This document shows, one piece after another, positions 1,985-44,361 of a stretch of DNA of 45,681 nucleotides (its first letter is position 1; each line of letters starts with the position of its first letter). Under the pieces are notes generated by a model. It was given only the letters and a program-made list of their open reading frames with translations, did no database searches and was not told where the DNA came from. Source of the DNA: a virus (Duplodnaviria > Heunggongvirae > Uroviricota > Caudoviricetes); IMG/VR virus record IMGVR_UViG_2563366991_000003, one strand, 5' to 3'. A program made the position numbers and the translations under genes.

Positions 1985-2794
1985 TTATTCCTCTGAATTA
2001 TCGATTACACTGTATTCCCCGGTTAATACAGAGGAATCTGCAGGATCGATTGTCAGTGGTTCCTTTTCATCCATTGATACTGCACGCTGGATCTCAATTG
2101 ATACGGGCAGATATTTGAACAGGCGACGAATAGCTGTTTTCTTTGCCATTTCTTCCCAGTGAGTTACCCACGGCCCGTTATTACCAGCTTTACTCTGGCT
2201 GCGCACCAGCTCAATCTGTCTGCGCGTCATAACTTCAAACTGAGTACCTCCGTCTTTCAGTCTTGCGACAGCATAGACGTGGGTAACCGGGGCATCTTCG
2301 TTTTCTCCTGGGCGGTGTATTAACTTTTCATCAAGGCCAAATTCGAAATTAAATTCGTCACCTTCACGGACAACACGGGCTGACAGGCTGGCGATTTGAC
2401 CTGAACGGCGAGCCAGATCAATCATGCCGCGATAGCCAATGATTAGCTGAACGTTTTTTTTACCGCTCTTTTCGTTTTTATTACCAAAAGGCAGTAAATA
2501 TGCATGACCGAGGGCGCTACCTGGCTCAAGTCCGAGCTGTGAACACTGTACGATTGCACTGACAAAACTCATAGTGTCACAGTTTCCTAACGCCGGAACT
2601 TTACGAATTTCTGTGGTGGCGATACGGATCATACGTTCAGCCGTCATATGGCGTGGAAGAGCTGCTGCCAGTTGCTCTTTCATTGATGGCTGGTTAATAA
2701 AACTAATCACGTCGTTATTTTTAATTGCTGCTGGTGCACGGTTTTCCTGAGTTTTTTGCAGATCGGCTTTTGCGATTGGTGGTTGCTTAGTCAT
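1985..2794 (-). CDS. recT: RecT single-strand annealing recombinase
   Basis: Protein from [16 protein letters not shown]... matches recalled E. coli RecT nearly throughout; the ORF-track start at 2851 is an upstream extension. Confidence 0.9.
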
Positions 2795-5438
2795 TTGCAT
2801 ATTCCTTAGCCCAGCGGGGCAGTGATAACGTCTTAATAGCTGGCCATTCATCGGTATTGAGGCAGTCAGCCAGGGTTCGCAGATTGCGGTGATATTCCAG
2901 CTGACCTGCTAGTTTTGCTTCTTCGCCCATCATGAAAATTTCAACCGGATAACGTCCGCATTCAATAGTTGTGCTGGCAACCAGAAAAACGAAAGTTGGC
3001 TGCACTCCAAACTGTGCTTCATAACCGTCACTGTAGAATGCATCCTGAACGTGATAGCGGTAGTCGTAATAAGCGGTTTTGAATCGTTGAATATCCGCCG
3101 TAGTTTTCACGTCCATGATCCAGTGAAATTCAGGGATAATTTTGTCCGGACGGCACCGACACAAAATTCCTGTTTCAGGATCTTCCCAGTAAATTGATGA
3201 TTCAGCGTGTCCGGCGCTTTCAACAAGCCATTGCCCCAGCGGCAAAGCCATAACGCTTTGATACATCAGTTCAATTTTCCGGCCTTCTTCCGCAGTGATA
3301 ACCATTTTTCCTGTGCTTGCGCATTCCATCAGAAACGCTTTCTCTTCTTCTTTTCCGGCGTTTGTACGGCGGTTAAATTCAGGTGCTACGATAAAGCGGT
3401 TACTGAATTCTTCCGGTTCAAGTACCCGGCAGTGGAAAGCGGTTCCTAAATCGAGCGTTTTTGTCTTTGTGGTGTCCACGGGGGCATTTTTACGCCACAA
3501 ATACAGTGCCGGAGTATCAGCAATGTCATCGAGCTGAGACTTACTGACACCGGGACCTGCGTGGTAATTCTCATTCGAAATTCCGTAATAAATACCTGGC
3601 TCTATGTCTTCTACGATTACGGGATCTGCGACTTCGCCAGTTTCATCACTGCAATCGCGATGCGGATCGCTGCCAGCATTCTCATTGTGCGGATGTTCAG
3701 CGCCTTCCATTTCCTCCGGATCATTTTCCTTAGCTTCAACCTGATTCTCTTCATCGAATGTTTCCTGGTTTGTTGCGTCGCCCATCACCGCACCACAGTC
3801 AGGGCAGTTATCCCCGCCAGTCTGGCCGCAGGCATTGAAGGCTATTTCCGGTTCCTGTTGCACTACTGGCTCAGGTTGTTTCATATCCGGGCTGGTTTTT
3901 TCCGTTTCTGGCTGGTTCTGGTACACAGAATCGCGAGTCTGGATCCCCTTAACCCATTTCGGATCGTTCGGGTCGCTAATTCCGTCAACAAATTCACCAC
4001 GTGATGCAGCAAGCAATTTATCGGCATCGACAGGATTTTTTGATGGAATGTTTTTCCGAGCTTCATGGAGTTCTGCCCGCAGTTCCTGATATTTCGCATC
4101 AACAGAATTTACCTGTGACTGAGCATCCAGCGGCTGCGTGTCCTGATGATGTTTAGTTGCGTCCGGTTCCATTGTTTCAGCCTCTCCCTGTTCATCTGCC
4201 GTTGTTCCAGATGGTTGCAGTTTTTCTTCATCATCCTGTTTTCCTTCTTCTGTTACTCGCTGCGGCATCGGGGCAGAGGAGCGACCGCAGGCAATATCCA
4301 CGATTTCCGGATCAGGGTTGGCATGATCGGTTTCAGTCAGTACTTTGTTCAGATATGCAGTGACGTGAGCGGGGATGACCTCGATCCCAATTGGTGCTTC
4401 TTTCACGGACGCAACCACGATGGCGCGGGAATAATCCAGCCCGCCAGGCATGGTGATGAATTTGTCGCGGAAAACAGAAAAGGGCGGTTTATTTTCAGCG
4501 ATAATTTCCTCAATGCGTTTAGCGTGTGCCGGATGAAGGTTATAGATGTCCACGTCCATTGAACGGGCCAGTACGCCAGTGGCTATATCGCGCGCCAGTG
4601 ACGTCAGATCGTGGACGAAACCTTCGCCGCGATCTGTGAGGTTCCCGCCGCCAGCATTAGCACCGGAAGCCGTGCGAGTGATGCGTGAAACACGATTCCC
4701 TTTTCGCCATTCTTTTGTCAGAAGACCGCGATCAATGTGTTCGGTATCCAGCCAGGCTGAAATGAAATTCTTAAATTCATAGGGCTGATGTTTTTTAGTG
4801 ATAGAGAAAACTGCCTTAATTGCATCAGTCAGGCGGAGCAGGGCGGCATTATCCAGAGTTGTCGGTTCTGCCATGCCGCGTATGGCCAACAGCAGATTCT
4901 GGACATAGCTGTTTTCCTGATCCATCTCAAGAGCAGTAATGTGTTCGCGTTGTTCTCGGGTGGCATGATGCAGGTATTTCCGATCCCCGGCCGCATACGT
5001 AAAAATGTGCAGAAGACGCTGTGTGAACCGCAAAGTGGCTACAGAGACTTCGCAATCCTGGCAATCCTCGTGGGCGTCTGCCTGCGCGTTTTCTTCCTGG
5101 CCTCCCGCCAGTTCGTTGGTTTCTTGAGCATTATCCTGGTGGTGAACGTCGTCTGGCGCTGCTCCCGGTTTTAGTTCCCATGTCATGGAGTCTTTGCTGA
5201 GTTGATAGCGTTCACTCCAGGTAAAATCGATCTCACCTTCAGGGGGAAGGTCATTAACGACAGGAAAATTTGTGGCAACAGCTTTAAAATAGTTGCTCAG
5301 TTTTTTACCTGACTTAACGATCAGGTAGTCCAGAGTGGCACAGGTCGATTCAAAATCGTCGCTTGCCCACAGGACGACGTCAGGTTCACCGGATGATTTT
5401 TTCGCTTTCCGTAACAGGAAGAGTGGTTTTGTGCTCAT
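2787..5438 (-). CDS. recE: RecE exonuclease VIII
   Basis: 883-aa ORF whose 3' end overlaps the recT start (classic recE-recT coupling); acidic central region and C-terminal nuclease domain as in Rac RecE. Confidence 0.88.
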
Positions 5439-5539
5439 TGTTTTTTAACCTCAACTCAGATTAAAATTCGTTTTGTTCAGTGAATGATCTTGCCGGATAC
5501 ACACTGTTCATAGCCTGCGCCATACGCAGGCTATTTCTT

Positions 5540-5815
5540 TCAGATTTCACCTTTTAATTTCATTGCAATTAGAGTTGCCAGAAATTCGGCTTTTTTTTCT
5601 GCGGGCAGATTCTTTCCGGTATGCACCAGGCACATTTTTTTGACACCTTCGTGAAGTGTTTTAACGTTGCCTGATGGACCGTCGATATCAACCACAGTGA
5701 ATGGGGTTTCTTTATTTTCTGTTTTAATCACGTAGCCAATACGCTTTCCTTCCAGATTAACCTCGTGAACAATGTCATCAGTAGTTACAACAGTGGCTTC
5801 ATAACTGGTAATCAT
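5540..5815 (-). CDS. racC: RacC-like small protein
   Basis: Sequence from MITSYEATVVTTDDIVHEVNLEGKRIGYVIKTENK... matches recalled RacC; start taken at the internal Met of the longer ORF. Confidence 0.6.
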   Translation of the reverse strand: MITSYEATVVTTDDIVHEVNLEGKRIGYVIKTENKETPFTVVDIDGPSGNVKTLHEGVKKMCLVHTGKNLPAEKKAEFLATLIAMKLKGEI

Positions 5816-5889
5816 GTTTTTCTCCTTAATTAAGGTTGAGCGAATCCCTGCCATTGCTGGCATAAATTCAGTTTCGCATAGTCAGTTAA

Positions 5890-6060
5890 TTAAAGTTCGT
5901 GTGCCATCTGGTCTTTTTCGGCACAACTTTCACTACAATATTTTTTCATTTCCGTCGTTTGGATAACTCCACGCATGAAATGAAGTGGTCTTTTGATACT
6001 TTTGCTTTCTTCAATTTCTTTATTGCAAAGGTGGTAAGCACATTTTATTTTCTTAGTCAT
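5890..6060 (-). CDS. ydaE: YdaE-like small Cys-rich (zinc-binding) protein, 56 aa
   Basis: Hand translation gives [56 protein letters not shown]; below the ORF-track size cut-off; its start overlaps the kilR stop by 1 nt. Confidence 0.55.
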   Translation of the reverse strand: MTKKIKCAYHLCNKEIEESKSIKRPLHFMRGVIQTTEMKKYCSESCAEKDQMAHEL

Positions 6061-6293
6061 CACCATGACTCCGCCTTTACAGGTAAACCATTACGACCGA
6101 GGAAGACTTTAATCATGCAGTCAGTAATGCATGTTTTTGTGGTCAGGTTACGAATATAAAGTTTTCGCTTTTTAATATTGTTTGCCGAGGCAATATATGT
6201 CCGGCCTTCATGAAGAACATAGTCACCAGGAGTCACACACTGACGTGGTATTTCATCAGTTCCGAAGTGATGTGCAATCATAATTATCTCCAT
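6060..6293 (-). CDS. kilR: KilR cell-division inhibitor (FtsZ-targeting killing protein)
   Basis: Region [46 protein letters not shown] matches recalled Rac KilR. Confidence 0.75.
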
Positions 6294-6701
6294 TTTTACA
6301 AATGAACTTTGTTGATGCGGTGCCTGGTGCCTCCAGGTGACTGCAACCAGTTAACAATTACAGTCGGCTTTCCCACCCAAACCAATAAGGACTAACATGA
6401 CTTTTAACTGTGCCGCGTGCGCTTAGCCGCATTCACCGCATCACAAAATTCACTTTAAAAAGGGCGGGCATCAGTCGAACTTCAAGAAAAAACTGATGCC
6501 GCCAAGACTACACATAGCAGTGTTGTTATCCACAACCGGAGGCGCACTCCCACCATTTAAATTTAACAGACAAGACCGACTCTTTATGGATATCGGAAAT
6601 GCGCCTTCGTGTTGTGCCCGGTTTTATTTCACCACCTCCGGGCTTTGGTGGTTTCTGCTATACCCCTACAGCGAGAATATTGAATTAATCCAAATAATGG
6701 A

Positions 6702-6854
6702 TTAGCAAGTATTTCTGGCAAGCCAGCGACGTGCGCCTGTTTCTGTTTTAAATGTTTTGCTTTTGGTATACGTCATAGCAGTGAACGTTCCATCTTGGTT
6801 AGGGAACACGCCGCACACCATGGATTCGTTATTGCCGAGGTCGATTTTTTGCAT
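6702..6854 (-). CDS. Small hypothetical protein (ydaG-like), 50 aa
   Basis: Hand-translated MQKIDLGNNESMVCGVFPNQDGTFTAMTYTKSKTFKTETGARRWLARNTC; same strand as the leftward early operon. Confidence 0.4.
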   Translation of the reverse strand: MQKIDLGNNESMVCGVFPNQDGTFTAMTYTKSKTFKTETGARRWLARNTC

Positions 6855-6864
6855 TTTTCGCACC

Positions 6865-6999
6865 TCACATCTTGTTGTTGCGGATAGAGGCTTCTGCTTG
6901 CCAGAGATCCCAGTCGTTGCTACGTAAAGCCTGCACAGCCTGGCTGTAAGTGATACCGCAACAATCCATCAAATACTGAACTACTTCGTAATGCACCAT
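6865..6999 (-). CDS. Small hypothetical protein (ydaF-like), 44 aa
   Basis: Hand-translated MVHYEVVQYLMDCCGITYSQAVQALRSNDWDLWQAEASIRNNKM; stop verified at 6865-6867. Confidence 0.4.
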   Translation of the reverse strand: MVHYEVVQYLMDCCGITYSQAVQALRSNDWDLWQAEASIRNNKM

Positions 7000-7169
7000 C
7001 TTATCTCTCCCCTTAACGCCGGGTGGCGGAACTAACTGCTGCACTGCAAAATTTGAATCCCGCCGTCATGTTCATACGCCTCGGGCTGGCTACTTAACCC
7101 CTGACCACTGCCTGGTAACTCGAAGTATTGCCTGGCGTTCTGTGGGGCGGGGTGGGTGGTATGCTGGAA

Positions 7170-7235
7170 CTATAGGTAATGCCTAATTGATTGTCAATAG
7201 GCTATGCCTAATGTTTTAAGCGTAACCTAATAGGT
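7170..7235. promoter_or_regulatory. Cluster of TTAGGC / GCCTAA inverted half-sites (OL-like operator region for the leftward early operon)
   Basis: aatgcctaattgattgtcaataggctatgcctaatg...cgtaacctaatagg shares half-sites with the palindromes in the racR-ydaS intergenic region. Confidence 0.35.
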
Positions 7236-7307
7236 GATGGCGACTGGAGAAAGTGATGGGGGGGTTAAATAACGGAATCCAGGAGTTTTCCGTCAGACCA
7301 TATAAGT

Positions 7308-7784
7308 TTAAGTTCCAGTTTTTGTGATGTTCTGGCTTTTCCGTTCAGATTCTAGAGCTTTCAGATACTTACCCACTTTCATTTCCATCGCTGCTATGTA
7401 GGCGCGAACATCGTGGTCAACCCAATCTGGTTCTGTAGCATTTCCAGATAACAGGAAAGCTACAATCGCTCTTATTTCATCAGAGGCTGCTTGATAAAGG
7501 TTGTTTATATCTAAAAGTTCACTTTTTGTATCTGGATTGGTGGGGGTTGGTATGGGGTATTCGTTAAGCCCCCAATGCTCTGGACCAACAACATCAGCAA
7601 AGAAACGCCATAATTCTGGAAGTTTATCTTTACTTATGGAGCCTTTCTTAATCCAGTCATAGATTGATGGTGGTTGGACTTTGAAGTGGCGTGCGACCTC
7701 CGCCTTTGATTTGACGGATCCCGATGCGATTTTTTTGTTAATGGCCTGCTCTATCGCTCGGCCTAAGTCTTTACCACTAAGCAT
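7308..7784 (-). CDS. racR: Prophage repressor RacR (HTH)
   Basis: 158-aa ORF transcribed divergently from ydaS; sequence matches recalled RacR. Confidence 0.85.
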   Translation of the reverse strand: MLSGKDLGRAIEQAINKKIASGSVKSKAEVARHFKVQPPSIYDWIKKGSISKDKLPELWRFFADVVGPEHWGLNEYPIPTPTNPDTKSELLDINNLYQAASDEIRAIVAFLLSGNATEPDWVDHDVRAYIAAMEMKVGKYLKALESERKSQNITKTGT

Positions 7785-7907
7785 TGCTTAATATTCTCCT
7801 ATGCTCATTGCATTAGGCAATCCCTACTCTCATTGTATTAGGCATAGCCTATTGACATTTGTATTAGGCGTCGCCTAATATCTCTGTGTGTTTTTGGAGT
7901 TCATTCG
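7785..7907. promoter_or_regulatory. Divergent racR/ydaS promoter-operator region
   Basis: Perfect 19-bp palindrome TATTAGGCGTCGCCTAATA (7862-7880) and imperfect copy TATTAGGCATAGCCTATT (7836-7853); TTGACA at 7852-7857 with TAATAT at 7876-7881 (18-bp spacer) overlaps the palindrome; RBS GGAG before the ydaS ATG. Confidence 0.5.
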
Positions 7908-8204
7908 ATGAAAAAAGAGAACTATTCATTCAAGCAAGCTTGTGCTGTTGTCGGTGGGCAAACAGCAATGGCTAGGCTTTTAGGTGTATCACCTCCAAGC
8001 GTAAATCAATGGATCAAAGGGGTACGTCAATTGCCTGCCGAGAGATGTCCAGCAATTGAACGTGCAACAAGAGGTGAGGTGCTGTGCGAAGAACTTCGTC
8101 CTGATATTGACTGGTCATATTTACGACGTTCGGCATGTTGTTCGCAGAATATGTCAGTGAAGCAACTAAATGACAGTAACAAATCCTCATTTGATCATAC
8201 CTGA
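7908..8204 (+). CDS. ydaS: Cro-like HTH regulator YdaS
   Basis: 98-aa ORF with an HTH region (MARLLGVSPPSVNQW); divergent from racR. Confidence 0.8.
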   Translation: MKKENYSFKQACAVVGGQTAMARLLGVSPPSVNQWIKGVRQLPAERCPAIERATRGEVLCEELRPDIDWSYLRRSACCSQNMSVKQLNDSNKSSFDHT

Positions 8205-8226
8205 AACATCAAGAGGCAAATGATTC

Positions 8227-8649
8227 ATGAAAATCAAGCATGAGCACATCGAATCGGTGTTGTTTGCCCTGGCAGCCGAAAAAGGGCAGGCATGGGTAGC
8301 CAATGCAATTACTGAAGAATATCTGCGCCAGGGGGGCGGCGAATTGCCCCTGGTTCCAGGCAAGGACTGGAACAATCAGCAGAATATCTATCACCGTTGG
8401 TTGAAAGGTGAAACGAATGCGCAAAGGGAAAAAATTCAGAAGCTGATCCCAGCAATTCTGGCAATCCTTCCGCGCGAGCTGCGTCACCGACTCTGCATCT
8501 TCGATACCCTGGAACGCCGTGCATTACTGGCGGCGCAGGAAGCGTTAAGTACGGCAATTGATGCGCATGATGATGCAGTCCAAGCCGTTTACCGGAAAGC
8601 GCATTTCAGCGGCGGCGGGTCTTCCGACGATTCTGTCATTGTTCATTAA
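8227..8649 (+). CDS. ydaT: YdaT (CII-like / toxin-like partner of YdaS)
   Basis: 140-aa ORF directly downstream of ydaS; recalled Rac YdaT. Confidence 0.75.
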   Translation: MKIKHEHIESVLFALAAEKGQAWVANAITEEYLRQGGGELPLVPGKDWNNQQNIYHRWLKGETNAQREKIQKLIPAILAILPRELRHRLCIFDTLERRALLAAQEALSTAIDAHDDAVQAVYRKAHFSGGGSSDDSVIVH

Positions 8650-8661
8650 GCAAAAGTTTTC

Positions 8662-9519
8662 ATGCTGTTTGTGCTTATTCTAAGCCACCGGGCAGCATCA
8701 TACGGGGCAATTATGGCCGCATTACCATACATGCAACTGTACATAGCTGATTACCTGGCTGACACCATGCATTTGTCAGCAGAGGAGCATGGTGCGTATT
8801 TGTTGCTGATGTTCAATTACTGGCAAACAGGAAAGCCAATACCTAAAAACAGGCTGGCAAAAATTGCCCGTCTGACTAACGAGCGATGGGCTGATGTTGA
8901 ACCATCCTTGCAGGAGTTTTTTTGCGATAACGGCGAGGAATGGGTGCATCTTCGGATTGCGGAAGATCTGGCATCAGTCAGGGAAAAATTAACCAAAAAA
9001 TCAGCCGCAGGAAAAGCATCTGTTCAGGCCAGAAGAAGCAGAAAGGAAGCAGATGTTCAAACAAAACAAGAGAGAAATTTAACAGGTGTTCAAACAGATG
9101 TTGAAGTGGTGTTTGAACATGATGTCAACACAAAGGCAACTAATAAAGATACAGATAAAGATCTAAAAACAGATCCCCCCCTAAATCCCCCCCGGGGGAA
9201 TCGAGGTGTCAAAAAGTTTGACCCTCTGGATATTGCTTTGCCGAACTGGATTTCTGTCTCGCTTTGGCGTGAGTGGGTTGAATTTCGCCAGGCATTGCGA
9301 AAACCGATTCGAACGGAGCAGGGCGCTAACGGGGCGATACGGGAGCTGGAAAAATTCCGCCAGCAGGGTTTTTCACCTGAGCAGGTGATTAGACACAGCA
9401 TCGCCAATGAATACCAGGGCTTGTTCGCGCCGAAAGGTGTTCGACCTGAGACGTTACTCCGACAGGTTAACACCGTCTCGTTACCGGATAGTGCGATCCC
9501 GCCAGGCTTCAGGGGGTAA
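8662..9519 (+). CDS. ydaU: Replication initiation protein YdaU (O-like, DUF1376); alternative start near 8713
   Basis: Position upstream of the DnaC-like gene; sequence MAALPYMQLYIADYLADTMHLSAEEHGAYLLLMFNYW recalled from YdaU. Confidence 0.7.
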   Translation: MLFVLILSHRAASYGAIMAALPYMQLYIADYLADTMHLSAEEHGAYLLLMFNYWQTGKPIPKNRLAKIARLTNERWADVEPSLQEFFCDNGEEWVHLRIAEDLASVREKLTKKSAAGKASVQARRSRKEADVQTKQERNLTGVQTDVEVVFEHDVNTKATNKDTDKDLKTDPPLNPPRGNRGVKKFDPLDIALPNWISVSLWREWVEFRQALRKPIRTEQGANGAIRELEKFRQQGFSPEQVIRHSIANEYQGLFAPKGVRPETLLRQVNTVSLPDSAIPPGFRG

Positions 9520-9525
9520 CTGTCC

Positions 9526-10272
9526 ATGAAAAATATTGCGACAGGCGACGTTCTTGAACGTATCCGCAGACTGGCCCCGTCACATGTAACCGCGCCATTC
9601 AAGACGGTAGCGGAGTGGCGCGAGTGGCAACTTTCCGAAGGCCAGAAACGTTGTGAGGAGATCAACCGTCAGAATCGTCAGTTGCGGGTGGAAAAAATTC
9701 TGAATCGCTCTGGCATCCAGCCATTGCACCGCAAATGCTCGTTTTCGAATTACCAGGTGCAGAACGAAGCGCAGCGATACGCGTTGAGTCAGGCGAAATC
9801 CATCGCTGATGAACTGATGACCGGGTGTACAAATTTTGCGTTCAGCGGAAAACCTGGTACCGGGAAGAACCACTTAGCGGCAGCTATCGGGAATCGCCTG
9901 CTGAAAGACGGTCAGACAGTGATTGTGGTTACCGTGGCTGATGTTATGAGTGCCCTGCACGCCAGCTATGACGATGGGCAGTCAGGCGAAAAATTTTTGC
10001 GGGAACTGTGCGAAGTGGATCTGCTGGTTCTTGATGAAATTGGCATTCAGCGCGAGACAAAAAACGAGCAGGTGGTGCTGCACCAGATTGTTGATCGCCG
10101 GACAGCGTCGATGCGCAGCGTGGGGATGCTGACAAACCTGAACTATGAGGCCATGAAAACATTGCTCGGCGAGCGGATTATGGATCGCATGACCATGAAC
10201 GGCGGACGCTGGGTGAATTTTAACTGGGAGAGCTGGCGTCCGAATGTCGTCCAGCCAGGAATTGCGAAGTGA
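9526..10272 (+). CDS. ydaV: DnaC-like replication/helicase-loader ATPase
   Basis: Walker [16 protein letters not shown] and Walker B LLVLDEIG; IstB/DnaC-like. Confidence 0.85.
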
Positions 10273-10294
10273 TTTTTACCGGGAGGAAATTTTA

Positions 10295-11056
10295 ATGGAG
10301 ACTGTTTTTGACGCACTGAAAGCAATGGGAAAAGCCACGTCGGTAGAACTGGCTGCGCGACTTGATATCAGTCGTGAAGAGGTACTGAACGAGCTGTGGG
10401 AGCTGAAAAAGGCTGGTTTCGTTGATAAAAGCGTATACACCTGGCGTGTGGCTGATAACAACGTTCAGCAGGAACAGCCAGAGCAGGCAGAACCGCCGGA
10501 AGAAACCACCACGGCAACAGTCGCGAAAATTTCGGAGTGCGATTTAACTGCGACGATTGAACAACGTGGACCACAAACGGCGGATGAGTTGGCTACATGG
10601 TTCGGTACCACATCACGCAAAGTGGCTTCAACGCTGGCAATGGCAATCAGCAAAGGTCGTCTGATTCGCGTTAATCAGAACGGTAAATTTCGTTACTGCA
10701 TACCGGGCGATAATTTACCAGCAAAGCCGAAAGCTGCATCGGTAACGGAAACTGATTTTAAAGCCTTTCCTCAGCCAGCAGATGTTGCGTTACCAGTACA
10801 GGAAGCTGCAACACAGGAAGATATTAAAACAGAAACTGTGGCGGACATTGTGCAGTCGCTGCCATCGTTTACTGAAACGCGAGCTGATGACCTGATTTTG
10901 CCATCGCTGCATATGGCAAACCGCGAACTGCGTCGGGCGAAAAATCATGTCCAGAAGTGGGAGCGAGTCTGCGCCGCGCTGCGGGAGCTGAACAAGCACC
11001 GGGATATTGTTCGACAGATTGCTGATTCTTCCCGCCGTGTTGTATCGGAAAAGTGA
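10295..11056 (+). CDS. Hypothetical phage protein (ydaW-like)
   Basis: ORF with GGAGG RBS before METVFDAL; the ORF-track start at 10244 overlaps ydaV. Confidence 0.45.
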
Positions 11057-11071
11057 TTGCCGGAGGCGCTT

Positions 11072-11503
11072 ATGGCAAAAGTATTTACACAAGAAGAGCG
11101 GGAAAAAATTAAAGGGCAGGTTGTTGAGCTAGTACGCCGGAGTGGACGCGAGACGTTACGACAACTGGAGGCCAAGACAGGTGCGACAAGATATCTGATG
11201 AGCGTTCTCGCCAGAGAGCTGGTTGCCAGTGGCGATGTATACAACTCTGGTTACGGGTTATTCCCGTCTGAACAGGCTCGTAAGGACTGGCAAAATGCCC
11301 GCAAAAAACTATCCAGGGCAAAGGTGAAGAAACCATCTGTGGTTGATCCGGACCTTATCTGGTCATTACCAGACGGAGAAATACGCCGCTACGACAGGCG
11401 TCTGAACATAATCTGTCGCGAGTGCCGGAAGAGTGAAGTTATGCAGCGTGTGCTGGCGTTTTATCAGAATGGTTTTCGAGAGAGGCTTGGAGATCAGGGA
11501 TGA
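11072..11503 (+). CDS. Hypothetical phage protein
   Basis: ORF after ydaW-like gene; RBS GGAGG before MAKVF; normal backbone GC. Confidence 0.4.
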   Translation: MAKVFTQEEREKIKGQVVELVRRSGRETLRQLEAKTGATRYLMSVLARELVASGDVYNSGYGLFPSEQARKDWQNARKKLSRAKVKKPSVVDPDLIWSLPDGEIRRYDRRLNIICRECRKSEVMQRVLAFYQNGFRERLGDQG

Positions 11504-11696
11504 ATAGAACGATGAAGGATGGAAGCTACATATTCTCGGTACTAAGATTTATTTTTCTGACACAAAATGACCATTTGGCGTTACATAATCCCAAAAAAAC
11601 GTATCAAAAATCTCAAAATGCGTTACGATTAGAGAGTATTTTGATTCTGCGTGCTCATTTTTTGATTGCTGTGGCTTTTTGTTGTGGGAGTGTTGA

Positions 11697-12851
11697 ATGG
11701 ATTATTTATCAGAAGTGTTAAAAATCATTGAAGGTGCAACAAAGGCAAATGCTTCGATGGCTAGTAATTATGCTGGGTTGCTGGCAGATAAGCTCGAACA
11801 AAAAGGGGAGGTCAAGCAAGCCAGAATGATAAGAGAAAGGTTGCTTAGAGCTCCCCAGGCGTTGGCAGGAGCTCAAAGGGCTGGAGGTGGGATATCTCTG
11901 GGCTCATTACCGGTAGATATTGATAGTCGACTCAACACTGTTGATGTCAGTTATCCTAAATTAGACAGTTCAGAGATTTTTCTGCCTGCAGCAATCAGTA
12001 CCCGTGTTGAAGAGTTTATCACTAATGTTCAACGTTATGATGAGTTTGTTAAAGCTGATGCAGCATTGCCGAGTCGTATGCTCGTGTATGGAAAGCCAGG
12101 AACAGGTAAGACTATGTTATCTAAGTACATCGCTACCCGCTTAGATTTTCCACTTCTTACAGTGCGTTGCGATACTTTGATTAGTAGTTTATTGGGACAA
12201 ACCAGCAAAAATCTTAGACAGGTTTTCGATTATGTAATGCAGAGGCCATCAGTGCTTTTTTTAGACGAATTTGATGCTTTAGCTGGAGCAAGAGGTAATG
12301 AGAGAGATATAGGTGAGCTTCAGCGAGTTGTCATTTCACTATTGCAGAATATGGATGCGGCATCAGAGGATACGGTAATTATTGCCTCAACTAACCATGA
12401 GCAACTTCTGGATCCTGCAATCTGGAGGCGATTTAGCTTCAGAATTCCAATGCCTCTGCCTGACATACATCAGAGAGAGTTAATTTGGAAAAATCGTTTA
12501 AAGAATATGATATGTAGCGATCTAGATTTAAGTGATTTATCAAGAAAATCGGAAGGATTATCCGGAGCAATAATTGAACAGGTGAGCTTGGATGCACGTA
12601 GGGATGCAGTTATTGAAGGTGCAAGTGTGATAAATCACCATAAATTGTATAGGCGTTTGTATCTTGCTCAATCGCTTATGGAAGGTGTAAATTTAAGCAC
12701 TTACGAAGATGAAATTCGTTGGTTACGTTCTAAAGATAAAAAATTATTTTCTATCAGAGTTCTTGCTAATTTGTACAAACTTACATCAAGAGTAATTTCA
12801 AACATTCTGAAGGAGTCAGGAGCATATGAGCAGAAGGGGTACACAGTTTAG
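11697..12851 (+). CDS. AAA+ ATPase (IetA-like candidate)
   Basis: Walker A VYGKPGTGKT, Walker B VLFLDEFD, sensor-1 ASTNH, Arg-finger-like RRF; AT-rich codon usage distinct from flanking genes; GGGAG RBS. Confidence 0.85.
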   Translation: MDYLSEVLKIIEGATKANASMASNYAGLLADKLEQKGEVKQARMIRERLLRAPQALAGAQRAGGGISLGSLPVDIDSRLNTVDVSYPKLDSSEIFLPAAISTRVEEFITNVQRYDEFVKADAALPSRMLVYGKPGTGKTMLSKYIATRLDFPLLTVRCDTLISSLLGQTSKNLRQVFDYVMQRPSVLFLDEFDALAGARGNERDIGELQRVVISLLQNMDAASEDTVIIASTNHEQLLDPAIWRRFSFRIPMPLPDIHQRELIWKNRLKNMICSDLDLSDLSRKSEGLSGAIIEQVSLDARRDAVIEGASVINHHKLYRRLYLAQSLMEGVNLSTYEDEIRWLRSKDKKLFSIRVLANLYKLTSRVISNILKESGAYEQKGYTV

Positions 12852-13713
12852 TAACGCAAAAGTTACAAACCCAATGTTAAGAATCCCTTTTTCCAGTAGT
12901 GACTTGGGTGCAATAGTAAACGCTGGCGGTGGGGCAAAGGTATTGGTTGATGTAACAGCCGAATATAGACAAGGGCTAGTAAGAAATTTAACAACCAGTA
13001 AACATTATTTAGAATCCAAACTTTCAGAGTACCCTGGAAGCTTGGGTACTTTGGTTTTCAAATTAAGAGACCAGGGAATAGCCAAAACGCATAGGCCGAA
13101 CAAAATTGCTCAAGAGGCTGGATTGCAAAATGCCGGTCATGCCAAAATAGATGAAATGTTGGTTGCTGCTCATGCCGGCTGTTTTGACGTATTAGAGTCA
13201 GTCATTTTACATCGGAATATTAAAGCGATTTTGGCTAATCTAAGCGCGATTGAGCGCATTGAACCTTGGGATGAGAATAGGAAGGTTCCAGGAGGCACTG
13301 ATGGTTTGTTTGAATCATCAAACATCCTTGTACGACTATTTGAGTACACAGGTGAAGATGCAACTTACAACAACTATGAAAACGTTATTTCTATATTAGA
13401 ACAACACGGAGTTAAATATGATGAGATTAGACAAAAATGTGGTCTTCCCTTATTAAGGATAATGGATTTATCCCCAAATGATAGATATATATTAGACATT
13501 CTCATTGATTACCCGGGTATAAGAACGTTAATTCCTGAACCAAAATATTCAGCATTCCCGGTTAGTGTAAGTGATTCTGTTGGCATTGAAACAAATAGCT
13601 TTCCCGTACCATCAGAAGAATTACCCATTGTTGCTGTATTTGACACTGGGGTAAGCCCCATCGCGGCAACAATTACTCCTTGGGTAGTGAGGGTAATGAC
13701 TCCAACTTATTGA
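12826..13713 (+). pseudogene. S8 subtilisin-like serine protease, N-terminal fragment (IetS-like candidate) ending in IS1
   Basis: Start overlaps the ATPase stop by 26 nt with an AGGAG RBS; contains the catalytic Asp motif AVFDTGV just before the IS1 junction; the last 7 codons read into IS1. Confidence 0.8.
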
Positions 13714-14210
13714 TAGTGTTTTATGTTCAGATAATGCCCGATGACTTTGTCATGCAGCTCCACCGATTTTGAGAACGACAGCGACTTCCGTCCCAGCCGT
13801 GCCAGGTGCTGCCTCAGATTCAGGTTATGCCGCTCAATTCGCTGCGTATATCGCTTGCTGATTACGTGCAGCTTTCCCTTCAGGCGGGATTCATACAGCG
13901 GCCAGCCATCCGTCATCCATATCACCACGTCAAAGGGTGACAGCAGGCTCATAAGACGCCCCAGCGTCGCCATAGTGCGTTCACCGAATACGTGCGCAAC
14001 AACCGTCTTCCGGAGCCTGTCATACGCGTAAAACAGCCAGCGCTGGCGCGATTTAGCCCCGACATAGCCCCACTGTTCGTCCATTTCAGCGCAGACAATC
14101 ACATCACTGCCCGGCTGTATGCGCGAGGTTACCGACTGCGGCCTGAGTTTTTTAAGTGACGTAAAATCGTGTTGAGGCCAACGCCCATAATGCGGGCTGT
14201 TGCCCGGCAT
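13707..14210 (-). CDS. insB: IS1 InsB (made as InsAB' by frameshift)
   Basis: 167-aa ORF overlapping the insA 3' end in another frame, inside IS1. Confidence 0.9.
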
Positions 14211-14404
14211 CCAACGCCATTCATGGCCATATCAATGATTTTCTGGTGCGTACCGGGTTGAGAAGCGGTGTAAGTGAACTGCAGTTGCCATGTTTTACGG
14301 CAGTGAGAGCAGAGATAGCGCTGATGTCCGGCGGTGCTTTTGCCGTTACGCACCACCCCGTCAGTAGCTGAACAGGAGGGACAGCTGATAGAAACAGAAG
14401 CCAC
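14129..14404 (-). CDS. insA: IS1 InsA
   Basis: 91-aa ORF with Cys-rich zinc finger and HTH, inside IS1. Confidence 0.9.
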
Positions 14405-14459
14405 TGGAGCACCTCAAAAACACCATCATACACTAAATCAGTAAGTTGGCAGCATCACC

Positions 14460-15867
14460 GGTAGTGAGTAGGGAAACATACGTAATTCCTCCTGATACGA
14501 GTTATGAACATGGGACTATGGTGTCTTCATTGATATCAGGCGCTCATTTTTTAAATGACAATCATCCATGGATTCCTGATACAAAATCTAAAATCCATGA
14601 TGTTTGTGCCTTAGATGAAAATGGATCTTATATATCAGATTTAATTCTGAGGCTAGCAGATGCTGTAAATAAAAGACCAGATATAAAAGTCTGGAATTTG
14701 TCTTTGGGAGGCGGACCATGTAATGAGCAGACGTTTAGTGATTTTGCGATGGAGTTAGATCGGCTCAGCGATAAATTTGGTATTTTGTTTGTAGTTGCTG
14801 CAGGTAATTATGTAGATGAACCTATACGTACATGGCCAAATCCTGATCCGCTTGGAGGTGCTGATTTAATTTCCTCTCCTGGAGAGTCAGTCCGAGCACT
14901 AACAGTTGGTTCAGTTTCTCATATGGAAGCTAATGATGCTTTAAGTGAAATTGGAACACCGACACCATATACTCGTCGTGGCCCTGGGCCTGTATTTACT
15001 CCAAAGCCAGATATAATCCATGCTGGCGGTGGGGTTCATAGACCTTGGAATGTAGGAGCAAGCAGTTTAAAGGTCGTAGGGCCAGATAATAGGCTTTGCT
15101 CTAATTTTGGTACTAGTTTTGCTGCTCCAATTGTGGCAAGTTTAGCTGCGCATACATGGCAGAGAATAGCCACTAATACAGACTTTAATGTTTCACCATC
15201 ATTGATTAAAGCATTATTAATTCATTCCGCTCAATTATCTTCTCCTGATTACTCGCCAAGTGAAAGACGCTATTTGGGAGCGGGAATTCCTAATGAAGTT
15301 ATTGAGACCTTATATGATAGTGATGATAGGTTTACTCTGATTTTCCAAACATTCTTGGTTCCTGGGGTGAGGTGGAGAAAGGATAACTATCCCATACCAT
15401 CGGCACTTATTCAAAATGGAAAATTTAAAGGTGAGATTGTAATTACTGCTGCATATGCACCACCACTGAACCCTAATGCCGGCAGTGAATATGTTCGCGC
15501 GAACGTAGAGCTAAGTTTTGGCTTAATTGAGAATAATACTATAAAAGGAAAAGTGCCTATGGAAGGAGAAAACGGTCAATCTGGATATGAGAGAGCTCAA
15601 ATTGAGCATGGTGGAAAGTGGTCACCAGTAAAAATTCATCGCAAGGCATTTAATAAAGGAATTACTTCGGGTAACTGGGCTCTTCAGGCTAAAACAACGT
15701 TGAGAGCGAATGAACCGGCCTTAATGGAGCCTTTACCTGTAACTATTGTAGTAACTTTAAAATCATTAGATGGAAACACACAAGTTTATGCTGATGGCGT
15801 AAGAGCTTTAAATGCTAATAACTGGGCTCACTATCCATTGCCTGCTCGTGTGCCAGTTTCCGTATAA
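14460..15867 (+). pseudogene. S8 subtilisin-like serine protease, C-terminal fragment
   Basis: Same frame as the N-terminal fragment once IS1 and one repeat copy are removed (..TPWVV|SRETYVIPP..); His motif HGTMVSS, Ser motif GTSFAAP, and VAAGNY oxyanion region. Confidence 0.8.
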
Positions 15868-15881
15868 CAACTATATAAATC

Positions 15882-15910
15882 AAACCCGCTGTAGCGGGTT
15901 TGATTTATTT
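15882..15910 (+). terminator. Rho-independent terminator after the protease gene
   Basis: aacccgc-tgta-gcgggtt hairpin followed by a T-rich tract. Confidence 0.5.
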
Positions 15911-16280
15911 GTGGGTGTGTTTTATAAAAATACCGCCCATACACAACAAAATACAAAAAGTATTATAGATAAAAAAGGAACGTAATGTGCAGATTTGTTG
16001 TTTTCCATATTTACTCACCTTAATATGATTAACCCTGATAGGGTTGTTATTTCAGCGGTTTTCAAATGAGATATTATGGTGATCTGGCAGATTTGCATAA
16101 CATTAAAATTTAATTTGTTTAACCGCTTTTAATAATAAGCGTTGTTTGTATCCCAGCAATCTGTTTTTTGGTTTTTATTCCATTAAGGTGGGGCTTTACA
16201 CTGGAGCCAGTTTATTTATACTTCATACGTCAGCCTGAACAACTGGCATCTGCTGCGCTGCGCCATCGAGAGATTAAGAA

Positions 16281-16880
16281 ATGGCGCATATACAACTGGT
16301 CAAACAAACCTCTTCCGGATTACTTCTCCCGGCGACGCCGGAGAGTTGTGATTTTCTGCATCAAATCAAAATAGGCGAGTGGATACACGCAGACTTTAAG
16401 CGTGTGCGTAACTACGCATTCCACAAGCGTTTTTTCAAACTCCTGCAACTGGGATTCGATTACTGGACTCCGGTCGGTGGGGCGATCACGCCTCGCGAAC
16501 GAGAACTGCTGTCTGGTTTCGTTGATTACCTGTGCGAATCAGTTGGTCGGGAACACACGCCAGCCCTGAGTGATGCCGCAGAGCAATATCTGAATACAGT
16601 TGCGACACGCAGAACCCGGGATACGGCATTGCTAAAGTCGTTTGAGGCTTTTCGCGAGTGGGTAACCATTCAGGCTGGATTTTACACCGAACATTTTTAT
16701 CCGGACGGTAGCCGCGGGCGTCGGGCAAAATCTATCGCTTTTGCGAATATGGACGAAACCGAGTTTCAGCAGGTTTATAAATCTGTTCTGAATGTGCTGT
16801 GGAACTGGATTCTGTTCCGTAAATTTTCCTCTCCGGAACAAGTCGAAAATGTGGCCGCGCAGCTGCTGGAGTTTGCGTAA
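16281..16880 (+). CDS. Nin-region protein (DUF1367-like)
   Basis: 199-aa ORF between the replication and Q modules; family assignment from recall only. Confidence 0.45.
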   Translation: MAHIQLVKQTSSGLLLPATPESCDFLHQIKIGEWIHADFKRVRNYAFHKRFFKLLQLGFDYWTPVGGAITPRERELLSGFVDYLCESVGREHTPALSDAAEQYLNTVATRRTRDTALLKSFEAFREWVTIQAGFYTEHFYPDGSRGRRAKSIAFANMDETEFQQVYKSVLNVLWNWILFRKFSSPEQVENVAAQLLEFA

Positions 16881-17170
16881 TGGTGGATTTACGTAAAGCG
16901 GCGCGGGGGCGGATGTGCACCGTCAGAATTCTTGGCTACTGCAATCACGATCCGGAAACGTCTGTGCTGGCGCATTACCGACTGGCGGGAACGTGCGGAA
17001 CAGCGACAAAACCACACGATATGCAGGCGGCGATTGCCTGTAGCTCATGCCACGATTTAATCGACGGGCGGGTAAAAACAAGCGATTACACCAAAGAAGA
17101 TTTACGCCTGATGCATGCAGAAGGTGTTTTTCGCACGCAAGAAATCTGGAGAAAGGAAGGTTATTTATGA
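16880..17170 (+). CDS. YbcO-like Cys-rich protein (DUF1364, putative nuclease)
   Basis: 96-aa ORF with C..C...C..SSCHD Cys/His cluster; start overlaps the upstream stop. Confidence 0.5.
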   Translation: MVDLRKAARGRMCTVRILGYCNHDPETSVLAHYRLAGTCGTATKPHDMQAAIACSSCHDLIDGRVKTSDYTKEDLRLMHAEGVFRTQEIWRKEGYL

Positions 17171-17709
17171 TTTACCCAACAAATACAGGCAAAAGCGGGG
17201 AACACCTTCGTCTCACCACGCTGGAAAGTGTCTGGATTCAGGGAAAACTGCGCATGTGGGGGCGCTGGTCGTATATTGGCGGCGGTAAGACGGGGAATAT
17301 GTTCAACCAGTTGTTGGCCTCTAAAAAGCTGACAAAAACGGCAATTAACGAGGCGCTCCGGAGGATGAAAAAAGCAGGTCTGAACAAGTCTGAACTTGAG
17401 GCTTTTTTGCGGGATATGATTAACGGTAAGCAAAAGAGCTGGCTGGCGCATTGTACTGATGCAGAGGCGTTATGTATTGATCGGGTCATAAGTGAGGTGC
17501 TGGCAGAGCATCCAGGATTGATTAGCGTCCTTCGGCAACGGTATGAGGGGCGGGGGATGACCAAACGCAAAATGGCTGAATTGCTAAATGATGCACACCC
17601 AGAGTGGTGTTTTAGCACATGCGAAAAGCGAATTGCTAATTGGTTGGCCGTTGCTGAGTATGCGCTATACATTCCCATGCGAGAATCATTCGCTCAAAAA
17701 ACGGCTTGA
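17167..17709 (+). CDS. Putative late-gene antiterminator (Q-like) by position
   Basis: 180-aa ORF from MIYPTN with AGGAAGG RBS; last gene before the AT-rich late promoter region and lysis genes. The longer ORF-track start at 17047 overlaps the previous gene. Confidence 0.45.
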   Translation: MIYPTNTGKSGEHLRLTTLESVWIQGKLRMWGRWSYIGGGKTGNMFNQLLASKKLTKTAINEALRRMKKAGLNKSELEAFLRDMINGKQKSWLAHCTDAEALCIDRVISEVLAEHPGLISVLRQRYEGRGMTKRKMAELLNDAHPEWCFSTCEKRIANWLAVAEYALYIPMRESFAQKTA

Positions 17710-17794
17710 TTTTTTACGCATAAACTGCTTCAATTTTGCTACGCTTCGCAAAGCTGTATCGCGAGGCGAATCAAGCGCAATTAAACTTTAATAG

Positions 17795-17825
17795 AACCCG
17801 CCATCGAGCGGGTTTTGTTGTTTCT
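17795..17825 (+). terminator. Hairpin plus T-tract downstream of the Q-like gene
   Basis: cccgc-catcga-gcggg stem-loop followed by ttttgttgttt. Confidence 0.4.
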
Positions 17826-18062
17826 GTGGTGTGATATCAGAAACGACATTTAATCATCGCCTTCAAAATAAATTTATTTATATGTTGTTGTATATATTTT
17901 AAGTGAAAGTGAATTATTCACATAAAATAAAAACATATAAATAAATTTACATAACTTGACGCAAAGTGTTGTTGCGATTGGAATATTAAATCGTATTATC
18001 GAAAACGGTTCTGAGGGGGAACTCTTCTTTGCTCGGTGATATCGCTCCCCTGAAGAACCAAT

Positions 18063-18138
<76 letters not shown>

Positions 18139-18141
18139 TAT

Positions 18142-18216
<75 letters not shown>

Positions 18217-18574
18217 GAGAAACAAGCCTTATTGTATCGTGGCACTGGCGTATTTTTTATTACGTGGGGTGGGTTGTTTTAAAAAGACAATCCGTTCTCT
18301 GACTATGATTGGAGGTCGGTTGTAGTCACAGTGCTAATTTTTTTACGGCAGCAGAATGGTGCATTATCGGTGGAGATTTTGTATTTCCTGGCAGGGTCGG
18401 TGATGCATCATTCTGGTGTTGTAAAAGCACCGCAGAGGTGTTCCTCAGTGCGAGGGTGGTTTAGATAGTGGTTTGGCGGGGAATCACAATATCTGTTGTA
18501 GAGATGGATATTTCGGGAGGCACCCGACACCTCGATTCTTATTACAATAAAATGATTTATCTCATGCAGTGACC

Positions 18575-37032: not shown

Positions 37033-37767
37033 GCTCTGAATGATGCTCTGGAACGAGAAAAAGAAATTGTCAGACAGAAAAACGAGCAGCTCGATATTCA
37101 GGCAGGAGACTGGGTTAGTGGTGCCTCCCAGGGATTCAATAACTGGCTGGATGACACTAAGGATATCAGTGAGCAGATAAAATCAACCACGACTCAGATG
37201 TTTGATGGAATGACCGATGCGCTGGGTGATTTTGTCACGACAGGCAAGGCAAATTTTCGTTCTTTCGCTACTTCCGTGATTTCGGATCTTAGTCGAATAG
37301 CATTAAAGGCTTCAATTACTGGGATTTTCGACAGCATTAGTAACAGTTCTTCGGGGGGGATTTTAGGAACTATCGGGAGTGCTATTAGTAAATTTATTCC
37401 GAATGCAAAGGGCGGTGTTTATGAGTCTCCGTCATTGAACACGTATTCGAACGGTATTTATGATTCCCCGCAATTTTTTGCTTTTGCAAAAGGGGCTGGT
37501 GTTTTTGGTGAGGCTGGTCCGGAAGCCATTATGCCATTAACACGAACATCCGATGGTTCTCTTGGTGTCAGAGCTATTAATAGTAAAAGTGGTAATGGAG
37601 GCGGAGATATTACCTATGCCCCTGTATACCAAATCACTATTCAAAATGACGGCCAGAATGGAGAGATTGGCCCTCAGGCAATAAAAGCACTTATGGGGAT
37701 GGTTGATCAGCGGGTGCAGGGCAATCTGTTAAATATGCGACGTGATGGGGGAATGTTAAGTGGCTAA
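37033..37767 (+). pseudogene. Tail tape-measure protein, C-terminal portion downstream of the amber codon
   Basis: Codons 37033-37197 are open in the tape-measure frame and continue into the 37198-37767 ORF (Gly-rich C-terminal region). Confidence 0.7.
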
Positions 37768-43630: not shown

Positions 43631-43648
43631 ATTTTATAACCCAGATAC

Positions 43649-43675
43649 GGGCGCCAGAAATGGCGCCTTTTTTAT
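43649..43675 (+). terminator. Rho-independent terminator after J
   Basis: ggcgcca-gaaa-tggcgcc stem followed by ttttttatt. Confidence 0.5.
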
Positions 43676-43697
43676 TGCAGAAAAGCGAGAGGTAATT

Positions 43698-44297: not shown

Positions 44298-44322
44298 TTA
44301 GCCAGGTAACACAGTGTTATGA

Positions 44323-44351
44323 CAGCCCGCCGGTTCAGGCGGGCTTTTTTG
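44323..44351 (+). terminator. Rho-independent terminator after lom
   Basis: agcccgcc-ggttca-ggcgggct stem followed by tttttt. Confidence 0.55.
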
Positions 44352-44361
44352 TGGAGTGGAT

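Follow-up and report, generated by a model that had tools for sequence, protein, structure and literature searches.

Probable IS1 knockout of the protease gene ietS in a prophage-borne IetAS locus of Escherichia coli

The stretch of DNA analyzed here (45,681 bp, hereafter the window) carries an ATPase gene followed by a subtilase gene that appears to be cut in two by an IS1 element. This raises the questions of whether the two pieces really are one gene, whether the interruption arose by ordinary transposition, what is left of the function of the locus, and why the protease rather than the ATPase was lost. We consider it very likely that the locus as a whole represents an IS1 knockout of ietS in a prophage-borne IetAS system. 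The features on which this reading rests are as follows.

11697–12851, plus strand: ietA (iteA), gene of an AAA+ ATPase reported to be the antitoxin partner; intact at 384 aa, overlapping the start of ietS by 26 nt
12826–13713, plus strand: 5′ ietS fragment, native codons 1–288, with the N-terminal domain and the catalytic Asp273 (13642–13644)
13683–13691, no strand: left target-site duplication GGTAGTGAG, 9 bp, ietS nt 858–866
13692–14459, minus strand: IS1 (IS1A type), 768 bp, transposase genes antisense to ietS
13692–13714 and 14437–14459: IS1 inverted repeats IRR and IRL, canonical ends GGTAATGACTCCAACTTATTGAT and GGTGATGCTGCCAACTTACTGAT, matching at 18 of 23 positions
14404–14129, 14210–13707 and 14153–14147, minus strand: IS1 reading frames insA and insB′ and the A6C frameshift site
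14460–14468, no strand: right target-site duplication GGTAGTGAG, 9 bp
14469–15867, plus strand: 3′ ietS fragment, from the rest of codon 289 through codon 754, with the C-terminal domain
15875–15908, no strand: hairpin with a perfect 15-bp palindromic stem, 8 nt past the ietS stop; a terminator-like match to the consensus only

The gene pair was identified as IetAS (IteAS), a two-gene anti-phage and toxin–antitoxin pair in which the ATPase IetA is encoded upstream and the S8 protease IetS downstream; the “subtilase” of an earlier note on this DNA is IetS (PGAP name IteS). Both proteins match the PADLOC models end to end (IetA, PDLC02196, E = 9e-143; IetS, E = 8e-301). IetA covers the whole NCBIfam profile NF042959 of IetA-type AAA+ ATPases (positions 1–367 of 367, 526.6 bits against a cutoff of 510) and also matches the Pfam AAA family (E = 2.6e-30). 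Its gene is 100% identical at the DNA level to iteA of strain 266917_2, and the exact 384-aa protein is present on at least 1000 contigs, which agrees with the earlier claim that the ATPase is intact.

When IS1 and one copy of the repeat are removed, ietS becomes a 2265-nt ORF of 754 codons with no internal stop, 100% identical to the intact E. coli gene, so that the predicted restoration of one continuous frame holds. About 30 complete genomes have uninterrupted loci that match the restored ietS plus ietA with 100.0% identity across 3394 nt, and the exact 754-aa IetS sequence is found on at least 1000 contigs. The restored protein spans the NCBIfam IteS profile (positions 1–747 of 747) with 1043 bits, above the equivalog cutoff of 900; thus, the split IetS is a disrupted member of this family and not a representative of a different one. 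Residues 268–544 match Pfam PF00082 (Peptidase_S8) with 92 bits against a cutoff of 21.8. The catalytic triad D273/H303/S505, in the Asp–His–Ser order, was aligned to D32/H64/S221 of subtilisin BPN′; a PDB sequence search and BLASTP against BPN′ aligned the Ser region alone, and Asp and His were placed by the Smith–Waterman alignment. The hairpin behind ietS probably serves as the terminator at the end of the ietAS cassette.

The inserted element has the length (exactly 768 bp) and the inverted repeats of the IS1 family, as the earlier note had described. The insA (91 aa) and insB′ (167 aa) frames are both open, the A6C motif is located at IS1 nt 307, and the fused InsAB′ frame has no stop over 232 aa, which is the arrangement of a −1 frameshift transposase. 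On the NCBIfam profile transpos_IS1 (NF033558), InsA corresponds to positions 1–81 and InsB′ to positions 75–199, the latter with 145.6 bits against a cutoff of 100. The element, the only IS1 copy in the window, agrees at all 768 bp (100% identity) with annotated IS1A-family copies in many E. coli genomes; given this identity to widespread copies and the intact frames, it is apparently transposition-competent.

IS1 is flanked on both sides by a perfect 9-bp target-site duplication, within the 8–9 bp of the family; duplications of 9 bp are the most common ones made by IS1, accounting for 78% of events in one study (PMC10359306). In the whole window, GGTAGTGAG occurs only twice, with exactly 768 bp between the copies, and the probability of a chance 9-bp flanking match at fixed positions is about 4e-6. 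In strain 266917_2, which has an empty site, the flanks of the insertion align to positions 2063–9200 and 9192–18400; since they overlap by exactly 9 bp, the target is single-copy there. The duplication noticed in the window was confirmed by the same junctions in independent samples.

The insertion interrupts the subtilase fold between ietS codons 288 and 289 and separates Asp273 from His303 and Ser505. The 5′ fragment reads from codon 288 into IS1 (RVMTPTY, the R codon being composed of AG from the left repeat and the first IS1 base) and reaches a TGA stop 22 nt inside the element, giving a product of 295 aa. In the 3′ fragment, whose product would be roughly 467 aa, the first two bases of codon 289 lie within the right repeat, and His303 (14509–14511), Asn402 and Ser505 (15115–15117) follow; its frame is open back to a TTG at 14446 in IS1, and gene callers place its start at a GTG at 14464. 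On the NCBIfam IteS profile, the 5′ fragment corresponds to positions 1–278 only (252 bits) and the 3′ fragment to positions 279–747 (772 bits), both under the cutoff of 900. The fragments are thus contiguous halves of one profile, and intact relatives carry a single 754-aa gene, which contradicts the idea that they are separate genes in different frames. The separation of the Asp motif from the His and Ser motifs, proposed earlier from the letters alone, is borne out by the alignment. In the window as it stands, an IetS-type S8 protease is not encoded as a single downstream protein, the gene being split, and the two halves bear the NCBI labels “hypothetical protein” and “S8 family peptidase”.

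A consensus promoter scan of 5.4 kb gave 8 matches, against 11.8 expected by chance, and revealed no promoter facing out of the IS1 end toward the 3′ fragment; the only match in this end is IS1's own inward insA promoter. By eye, no obvious ribosome-binding site precedes the 3′ fragment. The event can be pictured as follows. A canonical IS1 inserted into ietS by ordinary transposition, making the 9-bp target duplication. Asp273 was thereby stranded on the 295-aa product, and His303, Asn402 and Ser505 remained on a fragment without an evident promoter. The result would be a null allele of the protease and, because published work found that protease activity is required for defense, of the defense system as well. 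As far as can be judged from the sequence, the IetS protease is almost certainly dead and the IetAS system inactive. In principle, a low level of the His/Ser-bearing fragment could still be produced via the open frame from TTG 14446, or the fragments could complement each other.

The element that carries this locus is a defective Rac-type cryptic prophage of E. coli situated beside ttcA (the ttcA flank is just outside the window), and ietAS is its low-GC cargo. Like the Rac cryptic prophage, it contains intR, xisR, ralR, recT, recE, kilR, racR, ydaS/T/U/V and trkG. The window is colinear, with 99.8–100% identity, with the annotated region of NZ_CP026723.1, a Rac-type prophage beside ttcA, and with annotated strain 266917_2. 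Unlike Rac, the version in the window measures about 45 kb, includes head and tail genes, and bears the ietAS cassette between the replication and Q-like modules. Its defects are an in-frame TAG in the tape-measure gene and, now, IS1 in ietS. The TAG is common to the window and to sequences without the IS1 allele, and so the prophage was already defective. The suggestion that a polar IS1 block of the downstream Q-like antiterminator locked in the prophage was set aside, since a strong hairpin already follows ietS and the tape-measure stop is shared with non-carriers. Tandem Repeats Finder found no repeats in the region 6000–7300.

A comparison of related strains with and without the insertion had been suggested as a check. 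All 78 complete E. coli genomes carrying this ietAS have an empty site, and a search for the left junction, with 150 nt each from the flank and from the element, found the insertion in ietS in none of 5,426 complete E. coli genomes. For this reason, carriers were sought by exact look-up of the truncated products. The same allele, recognized by the exact 295-aa product, was found on approximately 11–21 other contigs from isolates and metagenomes, comprising at least four NCBI assemblies, several sequencing runs and metagenome assemblies. The left junction was recovered independently in at least nine other contigs (L003–L011), which come from other assemblies, runs and metagenomes, and the right junction, from the IS1 end through the duplication into ietS, in the independent contigs L018 and L019. 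With other contigs carrying the allele and both junctions independent, the insertion is real and occurs in more than a single strain. An additional 141-bp deletion is present in one carrier, and a SNP in one. The allele is inherited by a small group of isolates, and since it is common to several assemblies, runs and metagenomes, the insertion predates the divergence of several isolates. The earlier inference that the event is recent thus stands in part: no decay has followed the insertion, but “recent” is relative, as the allele is older than the split of these isolates.

According to PMC13069673, which cites Yamamoto 2009 and Gao 2020, the toxin of the pair is IetS and its antitoxin is IetA; defense depends on the activity of the protease, and ietA mutants were not constructible. 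IetAS acts by abortive infection (bioRxiv 10.1101/2022.08.27.505566). In E. coli, ietAS can be prophage-borne, and the system cloned from ECOR52 had limited activity alone (Wu et al., bioRxiv 10.1101/2022.08.21.504612); the phages T3 and T7 served in that work on E. coli ietAS. The locus in the window resembles IetAS of pTiC58 (Yamamoto et al. 2009) and that of Gao et al. 2020, both as described in PMC13069673, in having an AAA+ ATPase gene followed by an overlapping S8 protease gene. Unlike them, the protease gene is interrupted and the locus, as present, is predicted to be non-functional; anti-phage and toxin–antitoxin activities are known from published work on homologues.

That IS1 can insert into defense genes is known in general: cas genes and 12 other defense clusters, for example, RM and Dnd, have been found interrupted by IS1 and IS10 (Sheng et al., Nat Commun 2023, PMC10359306). 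The present case is similar in that a 768-bp IS1 with a 9-bp duplication broke a defense gene by simple insertion, and Sheng et al. likewise drew their natural examples from a survey of sequenced prokaryotic genomes. It differs in that the target is a prophage-borne, toxin–antitoxin-like Abi pair of which the toxin half alone was hit. The main text of PMC10359306 does not mention IetAS, and a literature search found no paper on an IS-disrupted ietAS. IetAS thereby joins the list of defense systems known to be disrupted by IS1. Although real, the loss of ietS by IS1 is of an ordinary kind; it opens no new question and shows no new mechanism, and its chief relevance is to annotation and strain phenotype. 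Because ietA is intact and the C-terminal fragment is large, defense-system finders may score an IetAS here despite its almost certain inactivity.

As to why the protease rather than the ATPase was lost, inactivation of ietS first would be the only order tolerated if IetS is the toxin and IetA the antitoxin, and other ietS null alleles, namely W286*, Y557*, a one-C deletion at nt 831–834 and +A at nt 654, fit this explanation. Beside them, ietA was called full-length or, in loci cut by contig ends, was identical over the part present. There are thus at least three to four other independent ietS-inactivating mutations with ietA kept, which fits the toxin–antitoxin relation, although two of the point alleles fall within homopolymers and are possibly sequencing errors. 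Together with the IS1 allele, they make a small natural data set consistent with the reported roles of IetS and IetA. Complete genomes contain three ietS nulls and no ietA null, an asymmetry that is only suggestive: 3 versus 0 is not significant with ietS twice as long, and the look-up for further null alleles was biased toward ietS. The most plausible reading of the IS1 event is that prophage cargo is decaying, whether neutrally or with a mild advantage from the removal of a potentially self-toxic Abi effector.

A stronger role of selection, in which the IS1 allele rose since killing IetS was directly beneficial, seems rather unlikely. The benefit might be relief from autoimmunity or Abi suicide triggered by a mobile element, resident or incoming, or the acquisition of a useful phage or plasmid, in parallel with IS-mediated loss of CRISPR-Cas. 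The persistence of the allele in several distinct isolates and metagenomes and the several independent ietS nulls are consistent with this, as are the reported toxicity of IetS and the triggering of IetAS as an Abi system by a phage protein (PMC13069673; bioRxiv 10.1101/2022.08.27.505566); moreover, IS1 insertions in toxic or self-targeting cas genes have been selected experimentally (PMC10359306). However, the allele is rare, being absent from the complete genomes searched and present on the 11–21 contigs noted, whereas the exact intact protein occurs on at least 1000, and ietS is intact in 75 of the 78 complete genomes, by annotation among the 60 matches listed plus two loci checked. No trigger was identified in this genome, and the other defects already borne by the prophage fit plain decay. 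The argument from a strong cost is also weakened by the report of Wu et al. (bioRxiv 10.1101/2022.08.21.504612) that defense systems showed little or no toxicity when strains competed.

A broader scenario, in which ietS is inactivated recurrently because selection disarms a prophage Abi toxin and the orphan IetA is kept as an anti-addiction or immunity remnant against IetS brought in by phages or plasmids, appears improbable. That the insertion itself left a useful remnant is highly improbable. Such a remnant could be an orphan IetA acting as an anti-addiction antitoxin against incoming ietAS elements, or the 288-aa N-terminal domain of IetS, which together with IetA could still serve in sensing or regulation. 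That chromosomal antitoxins can act in anti-addiction is well established as a concept; the allele has a perfectly conserved ietA, the gene is intact wherever checkable beside the other ietS nulls, and the N-terminal non-protease domain of IetS is kept whole. However, with zero substitutions in 3394 nt, the recency of the event alone would leave ietA intact, so that the same observation is equally expected without any retained function. Nothing points to purifying selection since the insertion, and the promoter scan showed no gain of promoter-like sites. An assembly artefact or chimera, with IS1 misplaced in a short-read scaffold, might be suspected of a window from scaffold-level assembly GCA_000351705.1 and of a multi-copy element that the median E. 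coli genome carries at about 11 places, but it is effectively refuted and its probability practically nil. The left junction is identical in at least nine contigs and the right one in two, both independent, and real transposition leaves just the trace seen here, a perfect 9-bp repeat around the element where intact loci have one copy.

Two further observations concern the contigs recovered in the look-up. L017 and 11 similar contigs were considered as a further insertion allele and rejected, the contig beginning with a Nextera adapter and being an artefact. L007 (ERR871414) shares the IS1 junction of the window, whereas upstream of window position 11062 its replication module is another one; the difference may reflect true mosaicism of the prophage that arose after the insertion, or an assembly switch in the multi-copy DUF977 gene.

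The ORFs on either side of the IS1 element are one gene, ietS. Removal of IS1 and one repeat restores a 2265-nt frame encoding 754 aa with no stop; the earlier note had claimed one continuous frame. With the ietA and reconstructed ietS sequence (3394 nt) as the query, matches were found in 78 complete E. coli genomes; all 78 carry both genes in one uninterrupted piece, about 30 of them at 100.0% identity. The restored IetS occurs letter for letter in at least 1000 contigs of a large protein collection. It matches the NCBIfam equivalog model NF042956 (IteS) end to end with 1043 bits (cutoff 900); the 5′ fragment covers profile positions 1-278 and the 3′ fragment 279-747. PADLOC identified the restored protein as IetS (E=8e-301, profile 3-748/749) and the upstream 384-aa ORF as IetA (E=9e-143). 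The Pfam domain Peptidase_S8 spans residues 268-544 of the restored protein, and an AAA domain is present in IetA. The pair is called iteA and iteS by PGAP, and NCBI PGAP and NCBIfam use IteA/IteS, whereas PADLOC and the literature use IetA/IetS. A full-text literature search for IteA and IteS returned no paper, so the two sets of names do not cross-reference.

The sequence GGTAGTGAG is present in the window in only two copies, at 13683-13691 and 14460-14468, separated by exactly 768 bp. Both ends of this insert are IS1 terminal inverted repeats (18/23 match). The insA gene (91 aa) and the insB′ frame (167 aa) are open, the A6C slippery site is present, and a -1 shift there gives an unbroken InsAB′ of 232 aa; InsA and InsB′ cover positions 1-81 and 75-199 of the NCBIfam IS1 transposase model. 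The element, the only IS1 copy in the window, matches IS1A-family copies from many E. coli genomes at 100% identity from end to end, and its transposase genes are antisense to ietS. In strain 266917_2 (NZ_CP026723.1), in which ietS is a single uninterrupted gene, the sequences flanking IS1 in the window map to 2063-9200 and 9192-18400 of the locus. The overlap is exactly the duplicated 9 bp, present there in one copy, which is the mark of a true target-site duplication. Both the intact element and the perfect duplication described previously are confirmed.

In a local alignment with the subtilisin BPN′ sequence, D32, H64, and S221 correspond to D273, H303, and S505 of IetS; judging by the motif, AAGN402 likely contains the oxyanion Asn. 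IS1 lies after codon 288 and therefore separates the catalytic residues as follows:

13642-13644, + strand, Asp273, on the 5′ fragment
14509-14511, + strand, His303, on the 3′ fragment
15115-15117, + strand, Ser505, on the 3′ fragment

The expected separation of Asp from His and Ser is thus found, and the 384-aa ietA ORF is whole, in agreement with the claim of an intact ATPase. The product of the 5′ ORF consists of 288 native residues followed by RVMTPTY and ends 22 nt inside IS1. The 3′ frame is open backwards as far as a TTG within the end of IS1, and no promoter directed out of IS1 towards the 3′ fragment was found by scanning for consensus sites.

The window sequence is scaffold KB732813.1 of GCA_000351705.1. 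The IS1 allele was absent from all 5,426 complete E. coli genomes searched. In a protein look-up, the exact 295-aa product reading into IS1 was found in 21 contigs, or 11 by a second count; among the sources are three further NCBI assemblies, several sequencing runs, and one metagenome assembly from ENA. Most of these contigs end within IS1, as is usual in short-read assemblies; the right junction, in which the IS1 end is followed by GGTAGTGAG and then by ietS, is present in two independent contigs. Since the junctions and the product recur in other assemblies and runs, the insertion is real, heritable, and older than the split of several isolates, with no decay since. The carrier flanks match the window at 100% identity except in two carriers: one has 1 SNP, and the other (L006, GCA_006238825.1) has a 141-bp upstream deletion corresponding to window 10952-11092, in the DUF1627/DUF977 region; thus, the carriers are not all one isolate. 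In contig L007 (ERR871414), the junction is found beside a different replication module, upstream of window position 11062. Bases 1-401 of this contig (the window before 11210) belong to a module annotated elsewhere as phage replisome organizer and DUF977, and thirteen SNPs and a 1-nt gap mark the switch point inside DUF977. This could be explained either by prophage mosaicism after the insertion or by an assembly switch or chimera.

A look-up of C-terminal products, together with the annotations available for complete genomes, yielded at least three or four more ietS loss-of-function alleles of independent origin:

ietS nt 858, W286* (G858A), in L012 and L016 (one NCBI assembly and one metagenome)
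ietS nt 831-834, loss of one C in a CCCC run, in L013 and L022 (a sequencing run and the complete genome B19695)
ietS nt 654, an additional A in an A run, in L015 (one long-contig assembly)
ietS nt 1671, Y557* (T1671A), in L021 (28Eco12)

Y557* is probably also present in NR3736, and the homopolymer indels at nt 831-834 and nt 654 could be sequencing errors. Contig L017 (SRR27242215) was rejected as a disrupted allele: its bases 1-25 are the Nextera transposase adapter (…AGATGTGTATAAGAGACAG). Twelve short adapter-led contigs mimic a cut ietS and are not countable.

The 28Eco12 and B19695 genomes encode the same intact IetA (WP_000385105.1); at the other null-allele loci, gene calling gives a 384-aa ietA that is cut off where the locus ends. 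Of the listed cluster members, 15 of 15 IetA and 5 of 15 IetS entries are full-length, and the clusters contain 109 and 1093 distinct sequences, respectively, although ietS is twice as long as ietA, some entries are contig-end partials, and the search was aimed at ietS. The imbalance between the two genes is thus suggestive, not proven.

According to PMC13069673 (citing Yamamoto 2009 and Gao 2020), IetAS was first reported as a toxin–antitoxin pair in which the protease is the toxin and the ATPase the antitoxin; phage defence needs protease activity, mutated-ietA constructs were unobtainable, and the anti-phage mechanism is otherwise described as unknown. A Bacillus IetAS behaves as an abortive infection system for which a phage protein is the trigger (bioRxiv 10.1101/2022.08.27.505566), and the E. 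coli system can be located in a prophage (bioRxiv 10.1101/2022.08.21.504612). The IS1 insertion in ietS is a simple one that duplicated 9 bp, splits the catalytic residues over two ORFs, and spares ietA; it would make the allele null for defence. The protease rather than the ATPase may be the gene hit because prior loss of the antitoxin would be toxic.

Along its entire length, the window is colinear (99.8-100% identity) with a Rac-type prophage annotated next to ttcA in 266917_2, with the following gene order:

up to the pair: intR, xisR, ralR, recT, recE, kilR, racR, ydaS/T/U/V, DUF1627, DUF977, iteA, iteS
after iteS: DUF1367/1364/1133, tRNA-Thr, tRNA-Gly, lysis genes, trkG, terminase, head and tail genes
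18063-18216, tRNA-Thr(TGT) and tRNA-Gly(TCC), between the Q-like gene and the lysis genes

Apart from IS1 and a copy-number difference of 122 bp near 6555-6680, the two prophages do not differ in structure. The G+C content of ietAS is 40% versus 47.5% for the window, and a hairpin with a 15-bp stem follows the pair, which resembles a self-contained cargo cassette. The tail tape-measure gene (34534-37767) contains one in-frame TAG at codon 833 (37030-37032). The same TAG is present in 266917_2, which lacks this IS1, so the prophage was probably defective before IS1 arrived. The loss of ietS may be either neutral, as the decay of cargo carried by a dying prophage, or the result of mild selection against a self-toxic IetS. 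The rarity of the IS1 allele speaks against strong selection, as does an intact ietS in 75 of the 78 complete genomes, going by the annotation of the 60 listed and by two loci that were checked.

Earlier work catalogued IS1 and IS10 insertions in cas genes and in 12 other defence clusters and also reproduced such events by experiment (PMC10359306), so the ietS insertion is a new instance of a known event type rather than a new mechanism. The main text of that paper does not mention IetAS, and our literature search found no paper on IS-disrupted ietAS. The earlier observation is confirmed and its interpretation supported with refinements; the finding is clean and well documented, yet ordinary.

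Several minor features of the prophage can be noted. A 73-aa ORF (11500-11721), overlapping the end of the DUF977 gene and the start of ietA, is called by gene callers in several loci and is absent from the RefSeq annotation; no family match is on record for it. The approximately 126-bp kilR–ydaF intergenic segment at 6555-6680 is single in the window, where Tandem Repeats Finder reported nothing, and is found in 266917_2 as a tandem pair of overlapping copies, which adds 122 bp. The left arm differs from that strain at four positions, one of which (9175) is in ydaU (8662-9519), an open 285-aa frame in the window annotated as frameshifted in 266917_2. Downstream of IS1, 53 of the 58 mismatches to 266917_2 lie within 41069-45261, in the genes for the J tail-tip, lom-like, and tail-fibre proteins, versus only five in the remaining 26 kb; such clustering suggests that host-range genes have recombined or diversified.
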